A stretch of 45,227 bases of DNA, taken from a virus. The stretch is from UHGV virus genome UHGV-0391923. One strand, given 5' to 3'. This document shows, in pieces, positions 4,619 to 33,581 of the stretch. Positions within the stretch are counted from its first letter, which is position 1. Each line of letters starts with the position of its first letter. The notes beneath the pieces are model-generated. The model was not told the origin of the DNA and did no database searches. It saw nothing but the letters and a program-made list of their open reading frames with translations. The position numbers and the translations under genes are program-made.

Positions 4619-4688
4619 GTCTATTTCTCTCTGTAAGCTCGGTATAGGCGTTTTTGGATGCCTGCCTATACCGATGTAGCTTGTTGGG

Positions 4689-4952
4689 TTAAAGTGTCGA
4701 ACTGTGCGATTTTAGAGCCAATAAGAAGCCTTCAAGGTTTTCTTCATGGGATTGTGCGTAAACATCATCATCAGTGGTGTAGCTAGTAGAAATCTTGTAG
4801 TAAGTAAATCCACCATCTTTGCCAAATACGTTAAGTCCCAATGTTAGGCCATGCGTATCATAAGAAACCATTGCGCTTGCATCATCATTTTCAGCGTTAA
4901 ACTCAAAAGCAGCGTTTACTGCTTGTAGTAGTAATTCTTTAGATAATTTCAT
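4689..4952 (-). CDS. Small acidic protein (87 aa, about 13 Asp/Glu versus 5 Lys); first gene behind the AT-rich promoter region
   Basis: ORF with RBS AGGAGAAATAACATG. Confidence 0.55.
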   Translation of the reverse strand: MKLSKELLLQAVNAAFEFNAENDDASAMVSYDTHGLTLGLNVFGKDGGFTYYKISTSYTTDDDVYAQSHEENLEGFLLALKSHSSTL

Positions 4953-5160: not shown

Positions 5161-5200
5161 AGATAGAATATACAAATACCGCTCCCAAATTAACCGCCAA

Positions 5201-5217
5201 TTTGATATAATTCTATT
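5201..5217 (+). promoter_or_regulatory. Extended -10 promoter TTTGATATAATTCTATT (TGnTATAAT); the same 17-mer recurs at 13231..13247
   Basis: Exact 17-mer repeat, each about 80-100 nt upstream of a plus-strand gene. Confidence 0.5.
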
Positions 5218-5298
5218 GTGGCTAGGCTGATCCCCGAAAGCTGTTTAACCTGAACAGTTGCCACAAATCTAAATCAGGTTTTCAATGAGGATTGAAGA

Positions 5299-5862
5299 AT
5301 GAAATTAGTTTATGGTTTTGGTGTAAATGATGTCGTCAACTCTAGCAAAACAAGAGAGTACGGAATATGGAAAGCAATCATAGAAAGATGCTACTCGGGA
5401 AAGCCCCTAATTAAGCACTCGACATACATGGATTGTATTATTGATGAGGAATTTAAATTATTTTCCGGCTTTAACGACTGGTTTAAAAAGCAGATCGGAA
5501 GCAACCAAAAGGGATGGGAAATAGACAAAGATGTTTTAATTAATGGAAATAAAGAATACCACCCTGATAAATGTGTATTTTTGCCAAGAGAGATAAATGG
5601 ATTTTTAAAAAAAAGAAAAAAGTGCAGAGGAGAGTTTCCTATTGGAGTTACCCTAAATAAACACGGATCATTCGTAGCTATGATGAGCCTTGGTAGCGAA
5701 AGGGAATACTTGGGTAGTTTCCAGAATCCAAATGAAGCATTTGAAGCCTACAAGATAGCCAAAGAAGCCCACATTAAGGTTCTGGCGAACAAATACAAAG
5801 ATATGATAGACCCCCGAGCCTATGAAGCCCTGATGCGCTATGAAGTTAAAATTACAGATTAA
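5299..5862 (+). CDS. Free-standing homing-endonuclease-like protein with a C-terminal AP2 DNA-binding domain
   Basis: N-terminal YGFGVNDVV...EYGIWKAIIERCY motif typical of phage HNH/AP2 endonucleases; AP2-like GVTLNKHGSFVAMMSLGSEREYLGSFQNPNEAFEAYKIAKEAH. Confidence 0.7.
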   Translation: MKLVYGFGVNDVVNSSKTREYGIWKAIIERCYSGKPLIKHSTYMDCIIDEEFKLFSGFNDWFKKQIGSNQKGWEIDKDVLINGNKEYHPDKCVFLPREINGFLKKRKKCRGEFPIGVTLNKHGSFVAMMSLGSEREYLGSFQNPNEAFEAYKIAKEAHIKVLANKYKDMIDPRAYEALMRYEVKITD

Positions 5863-5867
5863 AAATA

Positions 5868-5890
5868 AGCCCTCAATCGAGGGCCTTTTT
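5868..5890. terminator. Bidirectional intrinsic terminator AGCCCTCaatcGAGGGC with T-runs on both strands
   Basis: GC-rich hairpin between convergent genes; overlaps the primase stop. Confidence 0.6.
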
Positions 5891-8800
5891 ATATCTACGC
5901 TCCGCATAAGCTTTCATTTTATTCCAGCTATCCATATTCACCCGATAACCACGTTCACCGCCTTTGGTTGCACGTTTCCAACTCAAGCCGTATTTATCCA
6001 AAATCTGCGCCACGCTCTTACTGGTGTTTGACGGCATCCCCATGTTCAGCAGGTCGCCATTTTTCGCTTCACGCCATTGACCATAGCGCGATGGAATCAA
6101 TTTTAGTGAACTCAGCAAGAATCTATTTCTATTATCGCTCACACGGCTGATAATTGCGTCGCATTCAGCCTTTCCATAGAAAGTGCTAGTGATGTCGCTA
6201 TTCTCGAATATCGTGCCTACAGCGGCAATCTGTGCGTTATAGAACCTGCGCAAAGCAATGTTGTTATCCGTATCATCAATATCGAAAGCATAGCCCATCA
6301 AACGTGCGAATCTATCCAATGTTGGCATGTTCTCAAACATATCTATATTTTCGTCAATGATGTCGTGATCCAGATTGAATCCCAGGCTAGACCGTATCTT
6401 AAACGCCACAAGCTGAATTTCTTCCTCATCCGTGGTGTTTTGCTTTGCTTCGATTTCACGCGCTTTATCGGTGCTGATCTTGTCCGCGCTTCGGATATTG
6501 GCTCGATAGGTTGCTTTTAACTCTTGTGTGAGTAGTTTCATTTTATCGCTCAGGCTGTAGTCCACATTGGCGACCATCGCCTGCATCATTTCAAAGCAGT
6601 AATATTCTAAAAACCACACAAAGCCATTAGCAAAGTCCGCTCTATACATTTCCTCAGTGGCTTCAATGTGAGCCTTAAATTTGGAATACTCATTTTCTTT
6701 CAACACAGCACCCTCCAAGGCAGCAGCCTGACGCAATCCCAATAGAATTGACTGCGCGTTTACGTGTTCATAGCGTTTATTGTTGGCCTGTAGGCACACG
6801 TGATAATGAGGAACATAGCGCACACGGCCTAGCATCTGCGCAAAGTCACTAAAGCAAATAGAGTGACCCGAAGCCATGCCTGCGATCATGGTGAAGTGCG
6901 GATCAGGAACAAAAACTGGCTTGCCTTTTTCGTCATACACCTGATTTCCGCTTTCATCCAGTAGCGGCTTTTGATGCTCAACCGAAACCCCCGATGAAAT
7001 AGCAGGCGATGCAATCACCATTCGATACTTGCGGCTTTCCACTTCGATATTCTCTAAAAAATGCTTAATCTGCTTGGTCTTACTGTTCTTTGATGTAATC
7101 GTCAGTACATCGTAATCATCTGCAAACATTTGCTTTAAAACTTCGGCACGTTCTGCACTTTCCACTGAAAACCAGACATTGCCACCGTTTTGCAGCTCAA
7201 TGGTCACTTGGGTCAATAGGTCGGCACGGTCGCCATACAGGAAACACTTACGGTTTGCATTACGTGGAATCTGCTCAACAATCGTGAAAATCTCATCTGG
7301 ACGCGCTTCTTGCATGAAATCAAGCGTTGTTTGGTCAATAGAAGCATCTGCAACAATGACGCGCTCGGATTCATTCACAAGCTGCTTTAAGCCCAAGAAT
7401 ACTGATTCTTGGTTAGCCCCTGCCACTTTGCACTCCTTTGATGATGTGAAGCGGATGTTTTGGCTGATTTCATCAATGGCTAAGTTTTGGATCCGCCCAA
7501 CAAAGTTTTGTAACTGCATGGACTTGATGGATGGCAAACAGATTGCCATTCGCTCGGATACATCCGCTTTGGCTGCGGTCATATCGTCATAATTATCAAT
7601 GCCTAGCTTACCTGATAAATCTGCAATCAATGAACGACGGTGAGCAATTGCCCCGAAGGTTTTATCTGGAATCTTTGAAAACGGTGTAATCACGTTTCTT
7701 GTCTTTCCTGACCCCATTGGAGCAAATACCAGGCTGACAGGATTGGTCGGCACAAATTCCTCAAGCGATTCCACCACGACATGCTCATGTTTTCCCCATG
7801 ACTGCGGTCTAAGTGCGGTAGTCGCCATACGTTTCCGGTTTTGAATTGCCCATTGCACACGGCACATGATGGACGTATGCGTTCTCGGATTTAAAAGCGG
7901 ATGCGCGATAAACTTTCTGATCGTTTCGATATTCATAAAAGCAGGCACTTTTTCAGACATGCGAACCGCAACAACCAAAGCAGCGCGGGCAATATCCAGA
8001 GGCGCGTTAGATTCTTCTAGCACCTTTTCAGCATCGTCTATATACGGTAGGTCGAAAGCATTGAACGCATCCGCTCCCGATTCTCGAGCATAGTACAGTG
8101 TCGGTTTGACAACTCGCTCAAGCACCGCATTGTATCCACCTTCAAAATATAGGTCGTTGAAGTCTGTTGGCTTTCCCGATACATCAGCGAAGATTGGATA
8201 GACCACGTCCGCATCCACAGTAGCCGAGGTTGTGTAAGCAGCTTTAAGGCCAGTGTTCGACTTTTTGTATTGGTCGTTATCAGCACAGATAATAATTCTG
8301 TGAAGTGGATATGTTCTTCTGATGTATTTCGCAACATGGATTAAGTTCCCTGCGTCAATTGCAGCCAGTGTGTAAAGTTGCGTAGCTTCATGCAAAGTTG
8401 CGCCAGTCGCCCAGCCTTCGCAAATTAGAATCGTGTGTGTAAGTTCACCAAAGTCGTGATATACGCCTTGCTTCTCGCCTTTATAAAGCAGCTTCTTTGC
8501 ACCATTTGGCAGAATACCTTGCATGGATACCAACTGCCCTGCCTTGTATAACGGCACTAGCAGCGCGTTTTCCTCGGTCTGTAGGTTGCCTTCATCGTCA
8601 CGATAAACCCATTTCCCAACGCGCGTATTATGCGCCATCACGTCTTTTTTGGTCAGGTATGGGTGGCTTGTCGCTGGCGTGGCTGCATTCCACTTTTGCT
8701 GTGCTTGATTCTTTGCGCTTGCATAGCCTTGAATGACTTTTTTCTGTTCTTCTTGCGCTTCAAGTTCAAGCTGTTTTCTGCGCTCGGCACGTTGCTGAAT

Positions 8801-14380: not shown

Positions 14381-14996
14381 AGCGTCAAGCGTTGGTTCAA
14401 TCATGGCGTATCCTGAAAAAGATACGCTGCCGAAAGGCGCAATGACTTACCTTGAGGATATGGCAAGCAAAATTATTCTTGGATGGTCGGAGAGCCTTGA
14501 TACTTTTGAGATGCAAAAAGGCCGTGAAGTTGAGGATGAATCTATTGCGCTTTTCAATCAGGTTTCAGGCAACTTTTTTATCAAGAATGCGGAACGGAAA
14601 ACAACCGAACTTTTCACGGGCGAGTGCGATATTCATGACTCGGACAGCAGCACGATATGGGATACTAAAAGCTCATATAGCAAGAAAACGCATAACCTTT
14701 TCCTAGACATTAACAGCAACAAACTGTATTTTTGGCAGCTTGTGCAATATGCCGTGATGTGGGAAACGGATAACGCAGGATTGGCGCGGATTCTAGTAGA
14801 CACACCACCACACTTGATTAAAGCTAGTGACCCGATAGATTGGCATGAAGTGAGCCATATTGACCCGAAATACCGCGTCACGACTGCATCAATGCAAGTC
14901 ACACAAGAACTGAAAGAGCAACTGATTAACCGCGCTACATTGGCGCAAAACAAACTTAAAGAAATGTTAGATGATAAGGGTTTTGAGTATGAATGA
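14367..14996 (+). CDS. Putative PD-(D/E)XK recombination exonuclease (YqaJ/lambda-exo-like), partner of ERF
   Basis: Immediately follows erf; QFRASSVGSIMAY...KGREVEDESIALF...ECDIHDSDSSTIWDTKSS resembles the YqaJ motif pattern. Confidence 0.5.
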   Translation: MLQFRASSVGSIMAYPEKDTLPKGAMTYLEDMASKIILGWSESLDTFEMQKGREVEDESIALFNQVSGNFFIKNAERKTTELFTGECDIHDSDSSTIWDTKSSYSKKTHNLFLDINSNKLYFWQLVQYAVMWETDNAGLARILVDTPPHLIKASDPIDWHEVSHIDPKYRVTTASMQVTQELKEQLINRATLAQNKLKEMLDDKGFEYE

Positions 14997-15345
14997 ACAA
15001 GACTATGACAAAATGACAGCGGCACTATCAAAAGCAGGCAGTGATATTATTAATGAATTAAGCCCTGAAAAAGCCGACCTCTTGCACATGGCTGTGGGTG
15101 TGGCGGGTGAAGCGGGTGAGCTATTGGATGCTGTTAAGAAAGCAACAATCTACAATAAGCCGCTTGACCATGAAAACATGATTGAAGAACTTGGCGACTT
15201 GGAATTTTATATGAGCCGCATTCGTCAATTGCTTGGTGTGAGCCGTGATGAGGTTTTAGAACACAACTATGCAAAGTTATCTAAACGCTATGCAAAAGGC
15301 CAATACAGCAATAAACAAGCGCAAGAGCGCGCAGACAAGGAATAA
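14971..15345 (+). CDS. MazG-like nucleotide pyrophosphohydrolase
   Basis: GVAGEAGELLDAVKK and EELGDLEFYM acidic motifs. Confidence 0.7.
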   Translation: MIRVLSMNEQDYDKMTAALSKAGSDIINELSPEKADLLHMAVGVAGEAGELLDAVKKATIYNKPLDHENMIEELGDLEFYMSRIRQLLGVSRDEVLEHNYAKLSKRYAKGQYSNKQAQERADKE

Positions 15346-15348
15346 GTA

Positions 15349-15987
15349 ATGACCGTTAAATTAATGTGGGCAACACAAAATGCCGACTTCATGATTGCTA
15401 AAATGGCACGTGTGTCAAACCCCGACAACCAAGACAATGCAGAATTTAAACGCTTGCTGAATTACTTAATGAAGCACAACCATGTTTCACCGTTCGAAAT
15501 GGCTTCAATGTGCGTTCAGATTGACACCACGCGCGATATTAGCCGTCAGATTTTGCGCCATCGTTCTTTTAGCTTCCAAGAATTTTCAGGCAGATACGAA
15601 AATATGACGAAGCTGGGTGACATGGTGAAGCGTGAATGTCGATTACAAGATACTAAAAATCGACAGTCATCATTAGAAACGGAAAGCACAACCACTATTG
15701 TTGATTTCAATAAATCTCAGCGTGAAGTTTGGCGAACCGCCATAGATAACTATAATTTAGCTATATTAAACGGCATCGCCAAAGAGCAAGCTCGCGCCTT
15801 ATTACCCGAAGGCTTAACACCAACGCGTTTATACATGACAGGAACAATTCGGAGCTGGCTGCATTACATCCAAGTGCGAGCAGACGAAACAACACAAAAA
15901 GAGCATCGTATAATTGCACAAGGTGCATTAGATGTATTGCGTCAAGTTGCACCAATCACAGCAGCAGCATTTTTTGGAGATAAATAA
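15349..15987 (+). CDS. thyX: Flavin-dependent thymidylate synthase ThyX
   Basis: ThyX signature RHRSFSFQEFSGRY (RHR-x7-S). Confidence 0.85.
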   Translation: MTVKLMWATQNADFMIAKMARVSNPDNQDNAEFKRLLNYLMKHNHVSPFEMASMCVQIDTTRDISRQILRHRSFSFQEFSGRYENMTKLGDMVKRECRLQDTKNRQSSLETESTTTIVDFNKSQREVWRTAIDNYNLAILNGIAKEQARALLPEGLTPTRLYMTGTIRSWLHYIQVRADETTQKEHRIIAQGALDVLRQVAPITAAAFFGDK

Positions 15988-24138: not shown

Positions 24139-27100
24139 CTATCGTTTCGGTGCTATGCCGAAAGCGCCCTGAATGGCTCGGCTTTCATTACTGTTCGGGC
24201 GGTTCACGTTGCCCCACGACTGATTAATCATATTCTCGACAATATCAATTGTAACACCGTTTTCACTTTGAGTTTGCACAGCTTTATAGCCTTGCGGTAC
24301 GTTAATAATCACATTCACGCCTGAGCCTGAATCTAGCGTTCCACCATTGTTCAATGCATCCAATGTGCCACGACCTACGCGCTTGGTTGCTTCTGCATTT
24401 AGCACGTATTCCTGACCATGCACCACGCCTGCAACATCATTAACGCCCCCGTTGCCTGTATAGCCGCCTGACTTGAAGCCACCCTCGCGCACAGCCTTAA
24501 TATCTGATACCAGTGTAGCGGTTTGCGCTGCTACCGTTGCTGCTGCGCCCAAGTTTAAAGGGAATGGCAAGGAAAACGCTTGTGCAATACCGTTCTTAAT
24601 CGCAATCAATGAGCTTGCAATAGCAAAGGCTTTCTGAGCTGTAAACATCAGTTTATAGCCGTTCGATTGCTCGCCTGCAATGGTCTTAAACGTGTCGGCA
24701 AATGAGCCTGCTATTTGTTGGCCGTAACTTAGTTGCAAGTTGAGTCGTGCTGCCTGATACTCCCTATCAAGCTGGAGAAGTTTTTCGTTCTTTTCTTGCT
24801 CGGTGATAAACTCCCATTCATGCGCTGCGATGATGGCTTCACGTCTTTTCTGAAACTCCGCTTCCATCGAATAATCAACGCCAATCGCACCTAAGTAATT
24901 CTGCGCTACGGTTTGTTGCTGCATTGCTGTATCGGCTGCTTCACGTCCAAATGTGCCTGCAATCTGAGTCTGTCTTTCCTGCTCGGTCAATTGCTTGTTT
25001 CTGAGGATTTCTTCACGCTCCAAGCGATAGCGTTCTGCAATCTTGTCTTTTTCAGACATGAATACTTCATTGGCTGCGAATAGACGTTTTTCTTTGTTTA
25101 ACTCGATTTGTGCTAATTCATAACCGAACTCAATTTTAAGCGCATCAAGTTTGAGCTTTTGCTGCTCTTGCGTTAATTCCGCATCAGCCTTTATTTCCTG
25201 TTCTCTGATGTTCGCTCTAAACCTAAGCTTCTTCTCCTCGCTCAGTTCAAATTCAACAAGGTCATACTCGAACCTCATTTTAATGAGCTTAACTTCCTCA
25301 TTAAATCTGTTTTTGGCAGCTTCAGTGTACTGATCTTGCTCTGATGATGCGAAATTTGCTTTTTGAATATCAGCAATTTCACGTGCTAGGTCTTTTTCAA
25401 TCCTGCTAATACGATCAGAATACTCGTATGCAATTTGTTCGCGTAATTGGTACTGTTCTTCTTGCAGTCGTTCCGCTTCTTTGGCTTGTCGATTGTCTTC
25501 TCGTTCTTGTTTCTTTCTAGCCTTTTCTGCTTCTGATTCCGCTTTTTTGCTTGCTTTGGCCGATGCTGATTGAGCCTTGCTATAGTTCTCTGCTTTTTGC
25601 GTTTGCGTGACAATGTTAGAAATCAGCTTTTTATCTTCTGCTGAAATCTGACCTTTTGTTTTCTTTTGTGCTTCAAGCAGTAATTGTGCTTCTTGCAGTG
25701 ACTTGCCGTATTTTTGAGTTACAGTATTTAAGAATACTTGGTCGTAAAGTTTTTGCTGCAAAGACTGCGTATATTCACGGTTCGCACTTGCTGCATTGCG
25801 TGTCGAATTCGCGTCTTGGTCCATTGCTGCGGCTTTATTTAGTGCCTTGTTTGCAGCGTCTTGCATGGCATTACCTGCAAGGTTTACTTCAACCTTGAGC
25901 GCGGCTAACGCTCTTTGCGTATTTCCTGCTTTGATTGAGTTCTCATCATACTGATCAGCTTGGTCTTTCAGCTTGTTATACAGGTCTACCGAGATTTTTT
26001 CGTTATTCAGAAGCTTGATAGCATCCGTGTAGCTAATCACGCCATTTCTAGCGTCCTCTGTGATTTTTCTAGCGCGTTCATTTTCTACGGATGATGCTCG
26101 AATAGCAAAAAGAACAGCATCCACGGCTTCTTTGGATTTTGACAAGGCTTCATTTTGTGAGTTAAACGCTGCTGTTAAATCATTGACTGCTGAAACTTTG
26201 TCATTGCCCGCAAGCTTTTCAAGTTCTTCACTTGTCTTGCTTGCGATTTGCCCTTGCTCCTCAAGCTTTGCATTCGCTTCGGCTGTACGGCTTTGCAGGT
26301 ACATGTAGCCTGCTGCGAGTGCGCCAACGCCTATAGTGATTGCTCCGATTGGGCCACCGACCAAACCAAGCAAGCGACTTCCTAGCGACACAGAAGTATT
26401 CAATGCGCCCTGTGCTGCATTCTGCGCAATGATGGATTGCGTCACAGCATCACTAGCAAGCTTGTAACGCGCGTTTGCTGCTGCTGCCCCATACTTGGCT
26501 TGGGTTTCTGCATTCGTGGCTTGTACGTTCGCTAGATGCGCTTTAGCTTCGTTTACCTTAGTTGTGGCAAGTGCAATGCTTGCTTGCGCTTCTGCTGCGT
26601 CTGCTGCTTTCTGAGCTATGCTTGCGGCAATAGCACCCTGCGCCGCAACTGTTTTTGTAAGAATGGCTTTGGTGATGTATCCAATACCGCCCACGACTGC
26701 TGCATCAGCAAGCAGTGACAGGTTTTCAGAAAGTAGCTTGATTGAACCTGCAAGTAGATTCGCTGCACCGCTTGACTGTCCCGCTTCACCGATGAATTTT
26801 GTAAGCTCGTTGCTTAAAAGGCCGATGGATTGACTAATCGTTACATCAGTTTTTGCAAATAATTGTTCAACACTGTCAGCCGATTTTGTTAAGGCATCAA
26901 CAAGCACATCGCCCGTGATTTTGCCTTCTGCTGCGACTGCTCGCAATTGTCCGACCGTGATGCCCATACCTTGCGCAATAGCTTTTGCAAGTGCTGGCGT
27001 TTGTTCAAGAATCGAGTTAAGTTCTTCACCGCGCAATGTACCAGATGCTAAAGCCTGCCCGAATTGGGTCAATGCTGCTTCTGCTGCTTGAGTTGATGCG

Positions 27101-27537
27101 CCGGATACCGCAACGGCTTTAGATACGGTTTCAGTCAGCTTTGCGGTCTGCTCCATGTTGATACCGAGCGTTTTGGCATTGTCGCTGAATCGCTGATAAA
27201 CCTGTACAACTGAATCCCATGTTTGATATGACCGTTGCGCAATCCCGAATGTGTCATTCATCGCCTTATTAAGTTCTTGCTGCGAATTGGTGACAAGTTT
27301 TAATCGGTTTTGCAAGTTGGTATAAGCATCAATTTTGTTGATAGCCGCGCCTACTGTAACCACGCCCGCCATATAGCCTGCAAGGGCTTGCATGGACGTG
27401 CCTAGCGCGTTGGTTTGAGATACGGCTTTATTGCCGTTGTTGGTGATGCCTTGCAATTCTGAGTTCAACGCCTTAGCTGTTCGTTCAGCGTTTCTAGCGT
27501 CAATTGATATAACTAAGCGTGATTCTTGAACAGCCAT
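24139..27537 (-). CDS. Tail tape measure protein
   Basis: 1132 aa, Ala/Gln-rich coiled-coil, immediately downstream of the G/GT chaperone pair. Confidence 0.9.
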   Translation of the reverse strand: MAVQESRLVISIDARNAERTAKALNSELQGITNNGNKAVSQTNALGTSMQALAGYMAGVVTVGAAINKIDAYTNLQNRLKLVTNSQQELNKAMNDTFGIAQRSYQTWDSVVQVYQRFSDNAKTLGINMEQTAKLTETVSKAVAVSGASTQAAEAALTQFGQALASGTLRGEELNSILEQTPALAKAIAQGMGITVGQLRAVAAEGKITGDVLVDALTKSADSVEQLFAKTDVTISQSIGLLSNELTKFIGEAGQSSGAANLLAGSIKLLSENLSLLADAAVVGGIGYITKAILTKTVAAQGAIAASIAQKAADAAEAQASIALATTKVNEAKAHLANVQATNAETQAKYGAAAANARYKLASDAVTQSIIAQNAAQGALNTSVSLGSRLLGLVGGPIGAITIGVGALAAGYMYLQSRTAEANAKLEEQGQIASKTSEELEKLAGNDKVSAVNDLTAAFNSQNEALSKSKEAVDAVLFAIRASSVENERARKITEDARNGVISYTDAIKLLNNEKISVDLYNKLKDQADQYDENSIKAGNTQRALAALKVEVNLAGNAMQDAANKALNKAAAMDQDANSTRNAASANREYTQSLQQKLYDQVFLNTVTQKYGKSLQEAQLLLEAQKKTKGQISAEDKKLISNIVTQTQKAENYSKAQSASAKASKKAESEAEKARKKQEREDNRQAKEAERLQEEQYQLREQIAYEYSDRISRIEKDLAREIADIQKANFASSEQDQYTEAAKNRFNEEVKLIKMRFEYDLVEFELSEEKKLRFRANIREQEIKADAELTQEQQKLKLDALKIEFGYELAQIELNKEKRLFAANEVFMSEKDKIAERYRLEREEILRNKQLTEQERQTQIAGTFGREAADTAMQQQTVAQNYLGAIGVDYSMEAEFQKRREAIIAAHEWEFITEQEKNEKLLQLDREYQAARLNLQLSYGQQIAGSFADTFKTIAGEQSNGYKLMFTAQKAFAIASSLIAIKNGIAQAFSLPFPLNLGAAATVAAQTATLVSDIKAVREGGFKSGGYTGNGGVNDVAGVVHGQEYVLNAEATKRVGRGTLDALNNGGTLDSGSGVNVIINVPQGYKAVQTQSENGVTIDIVENMINQSWGNVNRPNSNESRAIQGAFGIAPKR

Positions 27538-27608
27538 TGTGCTTACCCTATTTTTAGACTAAGCACAGTATAACAAATAATTAAAACTGATAATTAAATA
27601 GACCGCCA

Positions 27609-27977
27609 CTAAGACGGTCTTTTCTTGCTTCCCTGCACCGCAGTCCTGCGCTCCGACATTTTCCGATGTTCGTCAATAAAATCATTGTCTAGCATGAAAA
27701 TCGCTTCGCAGAATAAATCCTGCTCACACGGCAAGTCATTCATCTGAATATATGCCATCAAATCATGCGGCGATAACGTCAGCGGTACGCCTTGTTCATA
27801 TCTGCGACCTCTAGCAATGTCGTTGTAGGCGTTTAGGATTGCATTTGCAGTAAAGCTATATTCAGGCTTTTCGATTACTGCGCTTTGCTTTCCGAGGTAC
27901 TGCGCGATTTTCGAGTCACGCGCGGCTTGCTTTTCGCTACCGATTTTTGCCCACTCGTAGAGTTTTCGGACTTTCCC
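27609..27977 (-). CDS. -1 frame extension (T part) of the tail assembly chaperone, giving a G-T fusion
   Basis: The -1 frame opens just upstream of the GGGAAAG slippery site at 27977..27971 and runs 122 codons without a stop (GKVRKLYEWAKIG...QGSKKRPS*) to 27609. Confidence 0.6.
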   Translation of the reverse strand, partial: GKVRKLYEWAKIGSEKQAARDSKIAQYLGKQSAVIEKPEYSFTANAILNAYNDIARGRRYEQGVPLTLSPHDLMAYIQMNDLPCEQDLFCEAIFMLDNDFIDEHRKMSERRTAVQGSKKRPS

Positions 27978-28402
27978 AATGTTTCAGCTTTCACCTCGTC
28001 GGCTTCACGTTGGATTTGCTCGGCATTGGTTTTCACAAATAGCCAGATGATGGGGCCAATGTCACCTTCGTTTAAAAGTTTTTTCGCGTTCTCAGTGGTG
28101 TAAATGAAGTCCTTTGGCTCGCCATTTGCGTCAGGCACAGCAATCCCTTTCCAATCCTCAATCAAATGACATGCAGCAGCATCAAGTAGCAGTTCATGGA
28201 ATAGTTTGTCATTTGCGCTCGCGGTGTCCACATCAAAGCCTTTCTGTGCGATTTGGTTTTGCGCTCGCTCTACTGCGACCTGATACGGCTTGTATGAAAT
28301 ACCACGTACTTTGATTTCGGCAAGAACTTCGCCTTCTGCGTCTTTGTATTCACACCATTTAGAGATTTGTTTTGATTTATTAAGTCCTACGATTAAAGAC
28401 AT
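27875..28402 (-). CDS. Tail assembly chaperone (lambda G-like)
   Basis: Directly upstream of the tape measure gene; acidic; contains the GGGAAAG slippery heptamer near its 3' end. Confidence 0.7.
   Translation of the reverse strand: MSLIVGLNKSKQISKWCEYKDAEGEVLAEIKVRGISYKPYQVAVERAQNQIAQKGFDVDTASANDKLFHELLLDAAACHLIEDWKGIAVPDANGEPKDFIYTTENAKKLLNEGDIGPIIWLFVKTNAEQIQREADEVKAETLGKSENSTSGQKSVAKSKPRVTRKSRSTSESKAQ
27971..27977 (-). promoter_or_regulatory. Programmed -1 ribosomal frameshift slippery heptamer G GGA AAG (plus strand CTTTCCC)
   Basis: Identical to the lambda G/GT slip site, in the zero-frame context tTG GGA AAG. Confidence 0.6.
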
Positions 28403-28451
28403 GATGCACCTGTGATTTATGGAATAAAATTATTATATATGTAATGCACTA

Positions 28452-28480
28452 TTGACACAATGTTAATATGTTATTATAGT
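28452..28480 (+). promoter_or_regulatory. Strong sigma70-like promoter TTGACA-N17-TATAGT driving the antisense island
   Basis: Consensus -35, 17-nt spacer, TATAGT -10; CAATGTTAATAT motif in the spacer. Confidence 0.6.
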
Positions 28481-28521
28481 TAGCACATAGACAAGCAATA
28501 ACGCTTTTAGGAGATAAAGAA

Positions 28522-28770
28522 ATGAATGATCTAAAAAAAGAAACTCAAAGATTAATAAAAGATGCTGCTGAATCAAGATCAAAAAAGATGCTTGAGCATA
28601 AACCAGTATGCGACCTAAGCGACCCAAATGTGACTTATTTTGATTGGCTTCTGCTAATGGGTCATGATGAAAGAGTTAATATTCTTGGACATGAAAAAGC
28701 TAAAATCTTCAATGAAAAATTTAAAGACAAAATCGAGCAGTATAACAATTTCATGAAAAAGCCTTTTTAG
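28522..28770 (+). CDS. hypothetical protein (82 aa)
   Basis: RBS AGGAGATAAAGAAATG. Confidence 0.5.
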   Translation: MNDLKKETQRLIKDAAESRSKKMLEHKPVCDLSDPNVTYFDWLLLMGHDERVNILGHEKAKIFNEKFKDKIEQYNNFMKKPF

Positions 28771-28786
28771 GTTGTAGGAGAACACA

Positions 28787-29008
28787 ATGCAATACGCAGA
28801 AACACTAGCTGAAATTCAGCAAGAAAAAGGGTATTTAGAGCTTGAATTGATGCGGGCAGCTTCTAAAGTTTTGGCTGAGTGGCAGAATAGAACCGGATTG
28901 GCTGTTGGTAATATCTACATAACAACCGAGCAGCTTCAAGAACTTGGTGGAAAGCCGAAAAGCATTGTGACTAATTGCAATGTTAATATTGATTATGAGG
29001 GATATTGA
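28787..29008 (+). CDS. hypothetical protein (73 aa)
   Basis: RBS GTAGGAGAACACAATG. Confidence 0.5.
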   Translation: MQYAETLAEIQQEKGYLELELMRAASKVLAEWQNRTGLAVGNIYITTEQLQELGGKPKSIVTNCNVNIDYEGY

Positions 29009-29076
29009 TATGTCAGAATGGATTAGTGTTGATATATGTGCTATACTAACACTAATTCAAAATAAGAGGCTTCCAT

Positions 29077-29616
29077 ATGATTGTTAATTGCAGAAATTGT
29101 TTGTGTGAGTTTGATAAAAAACCCGCAGAGATCAAAAGAACTAAAAATCACTATTGTAGTAAAAAATGCAAAGGTGACTTTTTGTCAAATGAAAATAAAC
29201 TAAGGTTCTTTAGCAAAGCAATCAAGAATGGTGATTGTTTGGAGTGGTCTGGATCGCTAAATAAACATGGATACGGTGTTGCTAGGCACAATAAGTCAGT
29301 AATGTTGGCACATAGGGTTTCATATTTAATTTCGAACGGGGAAATACCTGACGGGATGTGTATTTGCCATAAATGTGACAATCCAAAATGCATAAATCCT
29401 GATCATTTGTTTGCTGGCAACCACTCTACCAACATGGAGGATATGAGAATCAAAAGTAGAAAGTGGTCGAGACTGACTTTTGATGATGTTGCTGAGATAA
29501 GAAACAGTAGCGAAAGCTCTTCACTTCTAGCAACTAAATATAATGTGTCTGCACGAACAATAAGGTACGCTAGAGACGTAACCCACTGGATGCCACTACC
29601 CGAACCTCCGAAATAA
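29077..29616 (+). CDS. HNH homing endonuclease (HNH_3-type)
   Basis: GDCLEWSGSLNKHGYGVARHNKSVMLAHRVSYLISNGEIPDGMCICHKCDNPKCINPDHLFAGNHSTNMEDM. Confidence 0.85.
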   Translation: MIVNCRNCLCEFDKKPAEIKRTKNHYCSKKCKGDFLSNENKLRFFSKAIKNGDCLEWSGSLNKHGYGVARHNKSVMLAHRVSYLISNGEIPDGMCICHKCDNPKCINPDHLFAGNHSTNMEDMRIKSRKWSRLTFDDVAEIRNSSESSSLLATKYNVSARTIRYARDVTHWMPLPEPPK

Positions 29617-29617
29617 C

Positions 29618-29641
29618 AAAAGCCCCGTGACGGGGCTTCTA
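29618..29641. terminator. Terminator AGCCCCGtgaCGGGGCT, strongest on the minus strand (TTTTGTTATTT), shared by the major tail gene and the convergent HNH gene
   Basis: 7-bp GC stem; T-run on the minus side. Confidence 0.6.
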
Positions 29642-29644
29642 TAT

Positions 29645-30577
29645 TTACGCTGCTGTACGCGTCAACGTAGGCGCTTGCTCGATTACTCGGTACTCAAAGT
29701 CAGCCTGTAGAATGTCAGCATTTCCGCCGCTTGGCAGGGATGCAGTAATCTCTACTTTAGGCAGCGTCAACACATACGCATTCCCTAGACTGTCTTTCAT
29801 GGATACCGAAATCGCAATAGTTTCGCCTGTAAACTGCTTTTCATAGTTCACAGCACCATTGGCCGACCATGCCATTGTAAACGAACCTGTACCGTCTGCG
29901 AGTGTTGCAATCACAGCACCGACTGAACCCTCGCCACCTAGACAACGCTGCACTTCTGCGGTGTTATCCCAGTTAAATTCAAAATCGGTAATACATGCCA
30001 CGCCCACCTGTGTCACGCCGTCAATGGTAATATCATCAACTGAAATACCACTAATCACTGGCGTTAATGTTGGCTCGGTCACTGTGCCGCTTGGCAGAAT
30101 AGCCGCCGATTCACGACCCATGCCAATCATGCCGAAAGTCGCGGTTGCGATTGATTCAACGCCAATGGTCAGGTTAAACGTGTTGACGTGCATGCCACGG
30201 AAAACGTGATAGTTGTTAATGTCGGCATAGCCACGCAATACGCTAAATGACTGCGCAAGGTTGCCACCGAAAATAAGCGTATCCGTACCAACGGCAGGGC
30301 TATCGGTAGTCCATGTATTATATGCCGCGCCTGAAATCAGTTCATCATAAACACCGTATCGAAACTCGGCTGAAATATCGCCTTCGTAGTCGATTGTAGT
30401 TAATGCGCCTGACTGTGCTAGTCGGCTGTTTAAAATGGTTGCTGAATCTTCACGGTTTGCTGTGGCATCTAGTGAAATTTCTGTAAATGGTAAAGCAATT
30501 CGGTCGAACGGATCGGGCGTTACACCTCGAATGACTTCCTTTGCTAGTTGCGTCAACTGACGGCTGCCTGCGCTCAT
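29645..30577 (-). CDS. Major tail (tube) protein
   Basis: Position upstream of the G/GT chaperones; RBS GGAGAAATAACGATG; terminator after it. Confidence 0.65.
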   Translation of the reverse strand: MSAGSRQLTQLAKEVIRGVTPDPFDRIALPFTEISLDATANREDSATILNSRLAQSGALTTIDYEGDISAEFRYGVYDELISGAAYNTWTTDSPAVGTDTLIFGGNLAQSFSVLRGYADINNYHVFRGMHVNTFNLTIGVESIATATFGMIGMGRESAAILPSGTVTEPTLTPVISGISVDDITIDGVTQVGVACITDFEFNWDNTAEVQRCLGGEGSVGAVIATLADGTGSFTMAWSANGAVNYEKQFTGETIAISVSMKDSLGNAYVLTLPKVEITASLPSGGNADILQADFEYRVIEQAPTLTRTAA

Positions 30578-30670
30578 CGTTATTTCTCCACGTGGAATTG
30601 ATATATATCAGTCCTATTTTCTATTATTAGACTAATAAATGCAATTAATTGTAAATATCAGATTTACTGA

Positions 30671-31075
30671 TTAATTAACACGGAACTCCACGCGCACAAG
30701 CGACATAACAAAATCACCCTGCACGTCGTCTGTCGCTTCTGTCGGGGCGTTGGTCATTGTGACTTCAAAATCACCGTTTCGATAATGATGAAAATGGTCG
30801 CGCCATGCTTGGGCGAGTTTGATTAACTCTAGGTCGCCTGTACTTTTTCGGGCGAAGCATTGGATATTTAAAATGCCGTAATCTCTATGGAGTGTATTTA
30901 TAAAGAATCCCGCGCTTTGTGAATCACTGTACTGCACCACCACCCTGCACCACTCGCCTGTAGTTGGGATTTGAAAGTTCGGCTGATTCGTCCACTGGAT
31001 GCGACTTTGCGCAATGCCTGTAAACGATTTAATCCGATTGTTTATAATGAGTCTTGCATCTGTAGATTTAAGCAT
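30671..31075 (-). CDS. Probable tail terminator/completion protein
   Basis: Size and position between connector genes and major tail. Confidence 0.4.
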   Translation of the reverse strand: MLKSTDARLIINNRIKSFTGIAQSRIQWTNQPNFQIPTTGEWCRVVVQYSDSQSAGFFINTLHRDYGILNIQCFARKSTGDLELIKLAQAWRDHFHHYRNGDFEVTMTNAPTEATDDVQGDFVMSLVRVEFRVN

Positions 31076-31100
31076 AAAAAAGCCCTCGTTTTGAGGGCTA
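31076..31100. terminator. Hairpin AGCCCTCgttttGAGGGCT with flanking A/T runs
   Basis: GC hairpin plus T-run on the minus strand. Confidence 0.5.
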
Positions 31101-31112
31101 ATATAACATTAA

Positions 31113-31310
31113 TTATGGCATTCGTTTTATCACAGCATGAGCTAAAAACTCAAATTCACGCCTAGTTAATGCCTCAAGAACCATAAAAAGATTTACACGC
31201 TCATCGTTCTTCTTAATTAGATAAAACCACTCATCATCATGGTGTAAGGATTTAACCTCGTCTTTAGCTGGAATATTTTCCAGCATTTCAATTTCATCTA
31301 AATACATCAT
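31113..31310 (-). CDS. hypothetical small protein (65 aa)
   Basis: ORF followed by a hairpin. Confidence 0.4.
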   Translation of the reverse strand: MMYLDEIEMLENIPAKDEVKSLHHDDEWFYLIKKNDERVNLFMVLEALTRREFEFLAHAVIKRMP

Positions 31311-31406
31311 ATAACCAACCTCAGTTATAGCCTAAAAATATGGTGTGCCAATCGGTAGGCTTTCCCGACGTTCGATAGCTAATCTAGGCACATTGTCATT
31401 ATAATA

Positions 31407-31781
31407 CTATTTGTACTTATTAACAACCGACTGGAAAGACAACTGCACAAAGTTTGCAGGGGCTTGCATCGACCAGCCATTATTCAATCTTTCTATATAT
31501 ATCAATGAGTTGGATATATAGACAATCTTGCCCAATCCACCGCCTGCCTGAATCGTTGCAATGCCTTTGCTGATTGTGCCTTGTCCGCTTCGGTCCGTGG
31601 TTTCTGTGGTACTTGTGTCCACACTACCGACATTCACGCGCCAGTTTCCGCGAGCTTGGCCTGTGTCCACTGGTGTAGCCACGATTACCTTCTGTAAAAG
31701 CTCCCCCGCAACCTTTTTAGAAAAGTCGTCTGCATCCTCTAACACTTGAAAGCCGAAGTTAATCGGCGGGTTTTTCCACAT
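31407..31781 (-). CDS. HK97 gp10-family tail-component protein (start taken at the internal MWKN ATG)
   Basis: PVDTGQARGNWRV matches the gp10-family DTGxLRxSW motif; GAGGA RBS before the 31781 ATG. Confidence 0.55.
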   Translation of the reverse strand: MWKNPPINFGFQVLEDADDFSKKVAGELLQKVIVATPVDTGQARGNWRVNVGSVDTSTTETTDRSGQGTISKGIATIQAGGGLGKIVYISNSLIYIERLNNGWSMQAPANFVQLSFQSVVNKYK

Positions 31782-32988: not shown

Positions 32989-33210
32989 TCATTTAAAATC
33001 CTCGCGCTTTCCGCATACATGGTCTAACATTGAATCAATCTTCTTTTGCTGCTCTTGGTATGTGTGCCATGCGCCGTTTAAGTAATAAGCCGAAAACTCA
33101 TGAATAATGTATCCCATTTTTTTAGGTAGATACTCATTGCTACCCTTATCAAAAACAACATTGTGCAGGTTTGCTGCAATCTCTGGCAGCTTCTCAAATT
33201 CTTCTCTCAT
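32989..33210 (-). CDS. hypothetical protein (73 aa)
   Basis: ORF, 4-nt overlap. Confidence 0.45.
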   Translation of the reverse strand: MREEFEKLPEIAANLHNVVFDKGSNEYLPKKMGYIIHEFSAYYLNGAWHTYQEQQKKIDSMLDHVCGKREDFK

Positions 33211-33509
33211 TTTCCTAGCTCCTCATGCAAATAAACATCATCATTGATACACATGCCATCTTCGACCCACTGTTCGTCATTATCAATGCAATATTGCTTA
33301 TCATCTGGGTGTGGTCGCAAAACCAATTCGATAGAACATGGAAAGCCACCTGATACGCCATCAATCATGCACAGTATGGAGTGAAGCAAGCCATGTGTCT
33401 TTTCTTGGTCTGAGCATTCCTGCATAGCCCAATACCTAGCCTGAACTTTTGCATTTTGCAAAAACATGGCTCTCATTTCTTCTTTACTGTAGCTTTTACT
33501 CAATTCCAT
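33207..33509 (-). CDS. hypothetical Cys-rich protein (100 aa)
   Basis: ORF. Confidence 0.5.
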   Translation of the reverse strand: MELSKSYSKEEMRAMFLQNAKVQARYWAMQECSDQEKTHGLLHSILCMIDGVSGGFPCSIELVLRPHPDDKQYCIDNDEQWVEDGMCINDDVYLHEELGK

Positions 33510-33555: not shown

Positions 33556-33581
33556 AAGAAAAGCCCCTTCCGGGGCCTGTC
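33556..33581 (-). terminator. Terminator GCCCCggaaGGGGC followed by TTTTCTTTT after the capsid operon
   Basis: Hairpin plus T-run on the minus strand. Confidence 0.6.

Follow-up and report, generated by a model that had tools for sequence, protein, structure and literature searches.

We analyzed a 45,227-nt stretch of viral DNA (UHGV virus genome UHGV-0391923; the whole stretch is called the window), a 45.2 kb siphovirus genome that appears to be complete or near-complete and that carries a long structural block on its minus strand. Between the tail tube gene and the tail assembly chaperone gene of this block lies an island of 1.2 kb, the whole of which is antisense to its neighbors. A preliminary description had listed a TTGACA-N17-TATAGT promoter, two small open reading frames (ORFs) and an HNH_3 ORF on this antisense strand, a terminator common to the cassette and the tube gene, and a TTGTGT-N17-TATAAT candidate promoter on the minus strand; we found all of these. 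It had also taken the island for a self-contained mobile insertion, and this claim stood only in part. We consider it probable that the island is built of three nested layers, namely a moron-type slot, its cargo, and an HNH homing unit that replaced the core of a DUF551 gene, with DUF551-directed homing inferred. The features of the island are as follows, L003 and L123 being contigs from related phages:

28452-28480, plus strand: predicted cassette promoter, TTGACA-N17-TATAGT, agreeing with the consensus at 11/12 positions
28460 down to 28432, minus strand: candidate promoter of the chaperone and tape measure genes, TTGTGT-N17-TATAAT, with a perfect -10 and only 3/6 positions of the -35
28522-28770, plus strand: ORF1, 82 amino acids (aa), variable cargo with an AGGAG Shine-Dalgarno sequence; no family assigned
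28787-29008, plus strand: ORF2, 73 aa, variable cargo; phrog_1707, E=3.8e-9
29010-29031, plus strand: DUF551 5′ stump, ATGTCAGAATGGATTAGTGTTG (ATG TCA GAA TGG ATT AGT GTT G, encoding MSEWISV), identical to the DUF551 start in L003 and L123
29019-29589, plus strand: mobile HNH unit, 571 bp, from the WISV codons to the THW codons
29077-29616, plus strand: HNH_3 endonuclease ORF, 179 aa; Pfam HNH_3
29581-29616, plus strand: DUF551 3′ stump, ACCCACTGGATGCCACTACCCGAACCTCCGAAATAA (THWMPLPEPPK and stop), the in-frame end of the HNH ORF
29620-29638, both strands: GC-rich hairpin terminator, AAGCCCCGTGACGGGGCTT, 3 nt past the HNH stop and 6 nt from the tube stop

An HNH gene within the remains of a DUF551 gene

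The HNH ORF matched PF13392 (HNH_3) with 43.2 bits against a cut-off of 24.8 (E=2.9e-11), zf-His_Me_endon with E=2e-4, and eight PHROG HNH families at E<1e-8 (best 2.6e-27). The protein comprises an N-terminal Cys4 ribbon, the HNH core, a C-terminal three-helix domain and a tail derived from DUF551. This tail (HNH residues 164-179) matched positions 53-68 of the 68 in the Pfam DUF551 profile (E=5e-5), an odd match for a nuclease that arises because the HNH frame continues into the 3′ stump of a DUF551 gene, which supplies the C-terminus of the protein. At the other end, the homology of the 5′ stump to DUF551 genes stops at 29031 and its frame continues through foreign sequence to a stop at 29087, giving a 25-codon ORF (29010-29087) that the preliminary description had overlooked. 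DUF551 (PF04448) is found in the lambda-family Ea22 variant 2 and in YfdS of E. coli CPS-53; it is matched by the stumps and by the intact genes of relatives, whereas the window encodes no DUF551 protein. Only profile positions 53-68 and the 7-codon N-terminal stump of the full-length domain (positions 1-68) were recovered from the window, and no other DUF551-type motif was present anywhere in it. The DUF551 genes of relatives are full-length (Pfam E 7e-15 to 1e-10, profile positions 1-68 of 68).

The relatives were gathered by tube-protein scans of IMG/VR and metagenome contigs, together with contig look-ups for ORF1 homologues, and comprise about a dozen related contigs, whose flanking tail genes are 85-92% identical to those of the window at the nt level. 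One of them, L123, is an exact nuclease-free counterpart of the island, carrying ORF1, ORF2 and an intact 78-aa DUF551 gene. It is collinear with window positions 27597-29031 at 92.5% identity, a segment that includes the chaperone gene, the two promoters, ORF1 and ORF2 and extends 22 nt into the DUF551 gene, and it is collinear again from 29581 onward at 89.9% identity, the position at which homology to the DUF551 genes of both L003 and L123 resumes. Between these junctions L123 has a 179-nt DUF551 core (MSEWISVGDKLP...EITHWMPLPEPPK), while the window has 549 nt with the HNH gene. The site is therefore polymorphic for the presence or absence of the nuclease gene, with an intact DUF551 gene in L123, L127 and L003 and the HNH gene in the window.

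Other kinds of intervening element were tried and rejected. Rfam gave no match within 28200-29800 even with E values up to 1 allowed, and with the 179-nt core absent the splicing of a group I intron could not restore the gene. An intein was likewise rejected, the 5′ stump being out of frame with the HNH ORF and running into the stop at 29087, and Pfam gave no intein domain. Terminase-associated HNH proteins act in cos-site packaging; such a role was set aside here from the gene map and the background on these proteins, since the gene is polymorphic, lies among tail genes and belongs to the HNH_3 homing type. We also considered whether the match between a second DUF551 gene in contig L007 (...SRDVTHW...) and the 3′ end of the HNH gene might be a footprint of HNH loss. 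Nothing was concluded from it, as GTAACCCACTGG proved in the alignment to be common to DUF551 alleles.

In 17 homologues of the HNH protein (45-97% identity) the invariant columns include C5, C8, C27, C31, H79, H98, C100, D101, N102, C105, N107 and N119. An AlphaFold2 model had a mean predicted local distance difference test score (pLDDT) of 84.7 and placed three helices at residues 135-166, with the tail predicted as coil (pLDDT 54). The invariant W171 is the predicted hinge at which the nuclease's own C-terminal helix-turn-helix domain joins the DUF551 codons.

Recurrence of the HNH unit and its proposed homing

The closest homologue of the HNH protein in a database of 5.8 billion proteins was P0001 (97% aa identity), which is encoded on contigs L038 and L039. 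The 571-bp unit agrees with L038 at 560/571 nt (98.1%) and with L039 at 551/562, while the flanks of the unit, 100 nt on each side, have ungapped identities to L038 of 25% and 37% and are thus unrelated; the rest of L038 and L039 held nothing else matching the window. Identity begins precisely in the WISV codons (TGGATTAGTGTTG) and ends precisely in the THW codons (ACCCACTGG). In L038 an MSWISV stump precedes the unit and a different DUF551-type tail (HWQPLPEPPEN) follows it, and the tail in the window matches the local DUF551 allele (L003, L123) rather than that of L038. Two marks of a mobile homing endonuclease gene, polymorphism at the same site in close relatives and occurrence of the same element in otherwise unrelated genomes, were both observed for this unit, which has moved recently.

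The same arrangement is seen in more divergent family members (53-72% identity), which occupy early or nin-like regions in phages and prophages that are unrelated. Of eight independent contexts, seven have a WISV-type stump immediately upstream (the window, L030, L031, L034, L035, L037 and L038). Apart from the window and L038, these stumps read:

L030: MSGWISVEG, before the HNH start
L031: ...QPQWISVDK, the end of a truncated longer ORF
L034: MRWISIGG
L037: MWISVN
L035 (2850-3000): two nested stumps, MIEWRSVDCG and then TGGATTAGTGTTAAT

The nested stumps of L035 look as if a unit with its own WISV flank had entered another DUF551 gene. At the 3′ end, a proline-rich tail follows the invariant W in 15 of 16 aligned homologues (45-97% identity), mostly as W-x-P-L-P and then a short variable end. 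Such tails were also present in further representatives of 50% clusters (P0054, P0056, P0069 and P0115; P0181 has Y for W). P0106 (251 aa) starts with a domain whose last residues are ...NPWVSVEA and which continues in frame into a Zn-ribbon HNH; here a truncated protein bearing DUF551 may have become translationally fused to the nuclease. As a control, we took 80 more distant HNH_3 genes from IMG/VR, of which none had the tail and three had WxS[VI] within 150 nt upstream. Distant homologues, including those of the cultured phages Pam5 and LAh_6, end in ...W(K/R)H(I/V); these cultured-phage HNH homologues have no DUF551 tail, so that no cultured example was found.

We read the HNH protein as a homing endonuclease specific for DUF551 genes. 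The 571-bp HNH_3 unit has replaced the 179-bp DUF551 core, bringing its own ribosome-binding site and start; it would use the promoter of the cassette, and its ORF runs in frame into the last 11 DUF551 codons, thereby borrowing the stop of that gene and the terminator. The nuclease would nick or cut intact DUF551 alleles in co-infecting phages, and the break would be repaired from the HNH-bearing allele by crossovers in the only DNA common to divergent DUF551 genes, which is made up of 13 nt of WISV codons at one end and of (V)THW-MPLPEPP codons at the other. With the 3′ crossover taking place in shared, in-frame T-H-W codons, each copy would end with the tail and stop of its target; this would account for the variable tails, so that no function of the tail need be assumed. 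An Erf-like annealing protein and an exonuclease, both encoded in the early region of the window, could assist repair across such short homologies, which is suggestive only, such genes being common in phages. ERF or Rad52-type proteins are encoded by several other host phages of the HNH family. More tentatively, and with rather less confidence, we suggest that a Zn-ribbon HNH_3 lineage not described before may have specialized on DUF551 genes, which are small, dispensable and highly mosaic accessory genes of phages, replacing the variable core of the gene, recombining in its end motifs and finishing its own frame with codons of the target. In the papers mentioning DUF551 that the search covered we found no link to endonucleases, HNH and homing having been looked for in a small part of them.

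Alternatively, the middles of DUF551 genes may be swapped by ordinary recombination, the HNH gene being one more such middle that is inactive or acts elsewhere. The DUF551 alleles of the slot do share their ends while having unrelated cores, DUF551 is a portable domain in mosaic phage proteins such as the Ea22 variant and YfdS (PMC10834534), and all cargo of the slot has apparently been exchanged without a nuclease. However, passive shuffling would have to place the same HNH subfamily at the same position in at least seven unrelated phage contexts, as against 0/80 for other HNH_3 genes. In addition, the invariance of catalytic and Zn-binding residues in 17 homologues indicates a protein under selection, and a 98% identical copy in an unrelated genome indicates recent and efficient transfer across arms of 13 and 9-12 nt. 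We therefore regard this explanation as unlikely.

It is also conceivable that the W-PLP-PP tail and the upstream WISV are intrinsic to the HNH family, which would then be an ordinary free-standing gene inserting between genes and not into DUF551. This would fit the persistence of the tail in frame down to 45% identity and the homology among family members of the sequence between WISV and the HNH start. It is hard to reconcile with the cognate contig L123, in which an intact DUF551 gene lies exactly at the stumps of the window, or with a tail and stop that match the local DUF551 allele in the window while the 98%-identical L038 copy ends in HWQPLPEPPEN. The nested stumps of L035 are those expected from a flank-carrying unit entering DUF551, and the tail is predicted to be disordered. 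We consider an intrinsic tail improbable.

A conserved antisense slot with exchanged cargo

The slot is bordered by genes of the structural block, all on the minus strand:

30671-31075, minus strand: tail terminator gene
29645-30577, minus strand: tail tube gene, the right border of the slot; Phage_tube_2, E=8.9e-38
27875-28402, minus strand: tail assembly chaperone gene (G-like), the left border of the slot; phrog_313, E=3.7e-40, and Phage_YdaY in relatives
about 27612-27761, minus strand: T-like segment downstream of the chaperone
24139-27537, minus strand: tape measure protein, 1132 aa

The island differs from these neighbors in base composition, with a GC fraction of 0.28 in its intergenic DNA, 0.31 in ORF1, 0.40 in ORF2 and 0.36 in the HNH unit, compared with 0.46 and 0.49 in the flanking genes. 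A megablast search of 27000-31000 against 50,697 phage records gave no match, and the nearest cultured relatives, phages of Acinetobacter, Pseudomonas and Moraxella, have tube or capsid proteins that are 41-50% identical. In two of these, AM106 (Acinetobacter, tube 50% identical) and Aurca01 (Pseudomonas, 41%), the tube and chaperone genes are 44-72 nt apart, with a hairpin only and no cassette. In the close relatives, by contrast, at least nine cargo configurations, the window included, lie between the same promoter and hairpin:

L123/L124: ORF1, ORF2 and DUF551 (78 aa)
L127-L130: ORF1, ORF2 and a shorter DUF551
L125/L126: ORF1 only
L003 (= L025): ORF2 (frameshifted in the assembly) and DUF551
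L004: ORF1, ORF2 and an unrelated 104-aa gene
L007, L024, L028: a single DUF551 gene, with divergent cores
L023: three small unrelated ORFs
L029: a 206-aa protein with a hydrophobic C-terminus

Every cargo gene is missing from some relative, and DUF551 alone was matched when the relatives' cargo was searched with Pfam. At the same place, the more distant L005 (tube protein 62% identical) has an antisense cassette of unrelated sequence, with its own TTGACA-N17-TAAGAT, ORFs of 256 and 60 aa, and a hairpin. Since the relatives keep the promoter and hairpin with differing cargo, the 1.2 kb is, judging from these alignments, one state of a long-lived, conserved, moron-like variable slot and not a single recent insertion. 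The outermost of the three layers would thus be a slot for accessory genes that an uncultured siphovirus lineage keeps between its tube gene and its chaperone gene, bordered on one side by a near-consensus sigma-70 promoter that stands back to back with the putative chaperone/tape-measure promoter and on the other by the tube hairpin, entered from the other side. The second layer, the cargo of this phage, would consist of ORF1, ORF2 and a former small DUF551 gene, the last of which the HNH unit has entered.

ORF1 had no match in Pfam, PHROG or the phage database and no relative in IMG/VR outside the lineage. Its homologues (at least 84% identity) are confined to this phage group and always come first in the cassette, and the gene is absent from L003, L007, L024, L028 and L029. 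ORF2 has a homologue of equal length in L004 (73% aa identity) and shows 32-34% identity to small genes that lie next to the tube gene, on the sense strand, in AM106 and Vieuvirus R3177. In these Acinetobacter phages phrog_1707 is represented by a 70-72-aa sense gene directly after the tail terminator gene (L001/AM106 4681-4890; L040/Vieuvirus R3177 2501-2716). In AM106 this gene directly precedes the tube gene, so that, compared with ORF2 of the window, both its strand and its position relative to the tube gene are reversed. The ORF2 homologue of L003, a human-gut contig, is split (5340-5420 and 5198-5335) by a frameshift in an A-run, GAAAAAAG, which may be an assembly error or mark a pseudogene.

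The cassette promoter is the best consensus match in 24-34 kb and is unique in the window. A consensus match by itself is not above chance, as sites with up to two mismatches numbered 8 in the window against 7.6 expected, and promoter-like sites in 24-34 kb numbered 14 against 20 expected. The case for these promoter signals rests instead on their conservation in relatives. In all related contigs that cover the promoter side, whatever their cargo, TTGACA is invariant, the spacing is 17 nt and the -10 element is TAnnnT (TATAGT, TAGGAT or TATGAT); the spacer caatgttaatat(g/a)ttat is retained as well. Each ORF of the cassette (ORF1, ORF2 and HNH) is preceded by its own Shine-Dalgarno sequence. 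The invariant consensus -35, the fixed spacing and these ribosome-binding sites argue for transcription of the cassette by host RNA polymerase independently of the late operon. On the minus strand, the -35 element of the candidate promoter overlaps that of the cassette promoter, giving a back-to-back arrangement. The preliminary description had put this candidate forward, and its TATAAT (TACAAT in L127-130) and 17-nt spacing are retained in close relatives although the spacer sequence differs. This conservation of a divergent TATAAT suggests that the chaperone and tape measure genes are driven by a promoter of their own, downstream of the tube terminator.

The hairpin between the HNH and tube stops is, as had been proposed, common to both transcription units. 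Read on the minus strand, from the tube gene, it is followed by UUUUGUUAUUU and forms a good intrinsic terminator (-22.1 kcal/mol, z -4.3), and read on the plus strand, from the cassette, it has a poorer U tract (-15.1 kcal/mol, z -2.2). The stem AAAAGCCCC/GGGGCTTCT is kept, with a variable loop, in all contigs covering the terminator side. As AM106 and Aurca01, which lack the cassette, also have a hairpin after the tube gene, the hairpin is by this comparison older than the slot, and the cassette would enter an ancestral tube terminator from the opposite side.

These comparisons bear on two further explanations. The first holds that the plus-strand ORFs are ancestral, conserved genes of the tail module that have been inverted, with nothing accessory or mobile about them, which the preliminary description had named as the finding that would overturn it. 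The slot, promoter and hairpin are indeed conserved across the lineage, and ORF2 belongs to phrog_1707, members of which lie beside the tube gene in AM106 and Vieuvirus. Nevertheless, each cargo gene is dispensable: ORF1 is missing in L003, L007, L024 and others, ORF2 in L125, L007, L023 and L029, and DUF551 in L125, L023 and L029. The composition of the ORFs is also unlike that of their flanks, and we find this explanation very improbable. The second, that the whole 1.2-kb island is one mobile element driven by HNH into the tube/chaperone junction, is scarcely tenable: the island is absent in AM106 and Aurca01, is AT-rich and holds the HNH gene, but in relatives at 85-92% nt identity the promoter, the terminator and ORF1/ORF2 are present while HNH is missing, the HNH unit alone recurs elsewhere at 98% with borders at 29019 and 29589, and an unrelated cassette fills the same slot in L005. 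Of the self-contained mobile insertion proposed at the outset, what remains is an autonomous antisense unit foreign to the tube-chaperone junction as seen 44-72 nt wide in AM106 and Aurca01; it is not a single HNH-driven element, its mobile part being only 29019-29589, inside one cargo gene. The comparison with relatives that had been recommended to settle the matter thus gave a double answer, the distant ones lacking the island and the close ones keeping its promoter and terminator without HNH and with varied cargo.

Several observations weigh against the reading of the island as a slot, its cargo and a DUF551-directed homing unit. The homology arms are very short for recombinational repair. 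The persistence of the in-frame tail to 45% identity might mean that selection keeps it as a component of the nuclease, so that it would be more than a by-product of the junction. A WISV stump is lacking in one of the eight contexts, L036, as is the tail in several relatives that share the Zn-ribbon architecture. The top Foldseek matches in the PDB were weak (I-HmuI with prob 0.97, E 0.019 and a template modeling (TM) score of 0.30, then I-PpoI), and a PDB sequence search with the HNH protein gave no match. Finally, the poor U tract on the plus strand may let some transcription of the cassette read through the hairpin.

Comparison with known systems and other variable sites

Morons were reportedly described in the lambdoid phages HK97 and HK022 by Juhala, Hendrix and colleagues in 2000. 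The island resembles them in being an autonomous promoter-gene(s)-terminator unit of deviant composition, in a late structural region, between genes that are adjacent in relatives; a predicted promoter and terminator, the adjacency of the tube and chaperone genes in AM106 and Aurca01, and a deviant GC content were all found. It differs from a moron in that the promoter and terminator are fixed parts of the slot while the cargo is exchanged among relatives, and in that the unit is antisense to the operon, enters the neighbor's terminator from the opposite direction and has a divergent tail-gene promoter as its partner. Expression from a prophage, which belongs to the classic moron idea, cannot be assumed here. 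No integrase was found among the 20 window ORFs included in a non-exhaustive scan, and a tube-protein scan of genome contigs returned no relative and thus identified neither a host nor a copy in a prophage.

Free-standing homing endonucleases of T4-like phages (Seg, Mob) move by intronless homing (PMC2988022). The HNH unit shares with them a nuclease gene without intron or intein, presence or absence in close relatives, and replacement of flanks by recombination. Homing endonuclease genes are generally found near or within essential, conserved genes (PMC10448857), and the T4 elements are usually intergenic and cut nearby, often in an essential gene, whereas the HNH gene of the window has displaced the core of a small, dispensable gene, within which it lies and whose last codons and stop it has taken over. 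I-HmuI of SPO1, an HNH nicking enzyme (PDB 1U3E), combines an HNH/His-Me finger core with a C-terminal DNA-binding module of the helix-turn-helix type, an arrangement also predicted for the window protein. I-HmuI is, however, encoded in a group I intron, while the window HNH has no intron and has an extra N-terminal Cys4 ribbon and a DUF551 tail; the two are 14% identical over the aligned region. A free-standing endonuclease gene within a coding sequence is reportedly also represented by mobE, which splits nrdA in Aeromonas phage Aeh1. In gene splitting of the mobE type both halves stay functional, whereas here the DUF551 core has been deleted and 7 and 11 codons are left.

Morons and free-standing homing endonucleases are both familiar, and the island as first described was ordinary. 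What is less ordinary is an antisense slot in a late operon with fixed control parts and freely exchanged cargo, which amounts to a natural docking site. Such a slot is useful for studying how accessory genes are gained without breaking the operon, and it suggests a safe insertion point for engineering. Equally unusual is an HNH subfamily that appears to home into a non-essential gene family and to borrow its 3′ codons. If this is true, a nuclease exploiting the ends that a hypervariable accessory domain conserves would help to explain why DUF551 is a scattered portable domain, and the WISV and HWMPLPEPP ends of DUF551, besides being motifs in the protein, would serve in the DNA as sites for landing and recombination. 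The slot in the tail operon would likewise be a reusable docking bay, a similar promoter being present at the second slot of relatives between the chaperone and tape measure genes, and the system would offer a simple target for nuclease testing.

This second variable slot lies between the chaperone T segment and the tape measure gene and is empty in the window (27538-27611, 71 nt) and in L028 (51 nt). In other relatives (L003 6314-6658, L024 2128-2645, L007 1433-1636, L123 1853-2050, L127 1834-2034) it holds sense-oriented cargo, which may be another DUF551 gene or else an ORF of 81 or 123 aa. A promoter like that of the cassette, TTGACAyTATGrTAAyAT..TATGAT, stands before this cargo in L003, L024 and L127. 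AM106 has HicAB and another gene at this place. The emptiness of the second slot in the window fits the idea that intact DUF551 DNA is a target, for which it is weak evidence.

A third variable spot was observed upstream of the tail terminator gene (window 31076-31407), where the window has an ORF at 31113-31310 (65 aa, GC about 0.35, no known family) and L003 has a different insert of 306 nt. In L123 the corresponding spot (5195-6249) encodes a 389-aa DUF723/T5orf172 protein, another gene of the homing-endonuclease type. Beside the Erf-like protein and exonuclease of the early region, the window encodes a MazG-type pyrophosphohydrolase and a thymidylate synthase (14971-15342 and 15349-15984); DUF551 also occurs in the phage dATP/dGTP pyrophosphohydrolase MazZ, according to the Ea22 paper. 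Two small sense-strand ORFs (73 and 100 aa) at 32989-33509, between capsid-side and head-tail connector genes, are bordered by terminator-like hairpins (33561-33578) and may be further accessory inserts.

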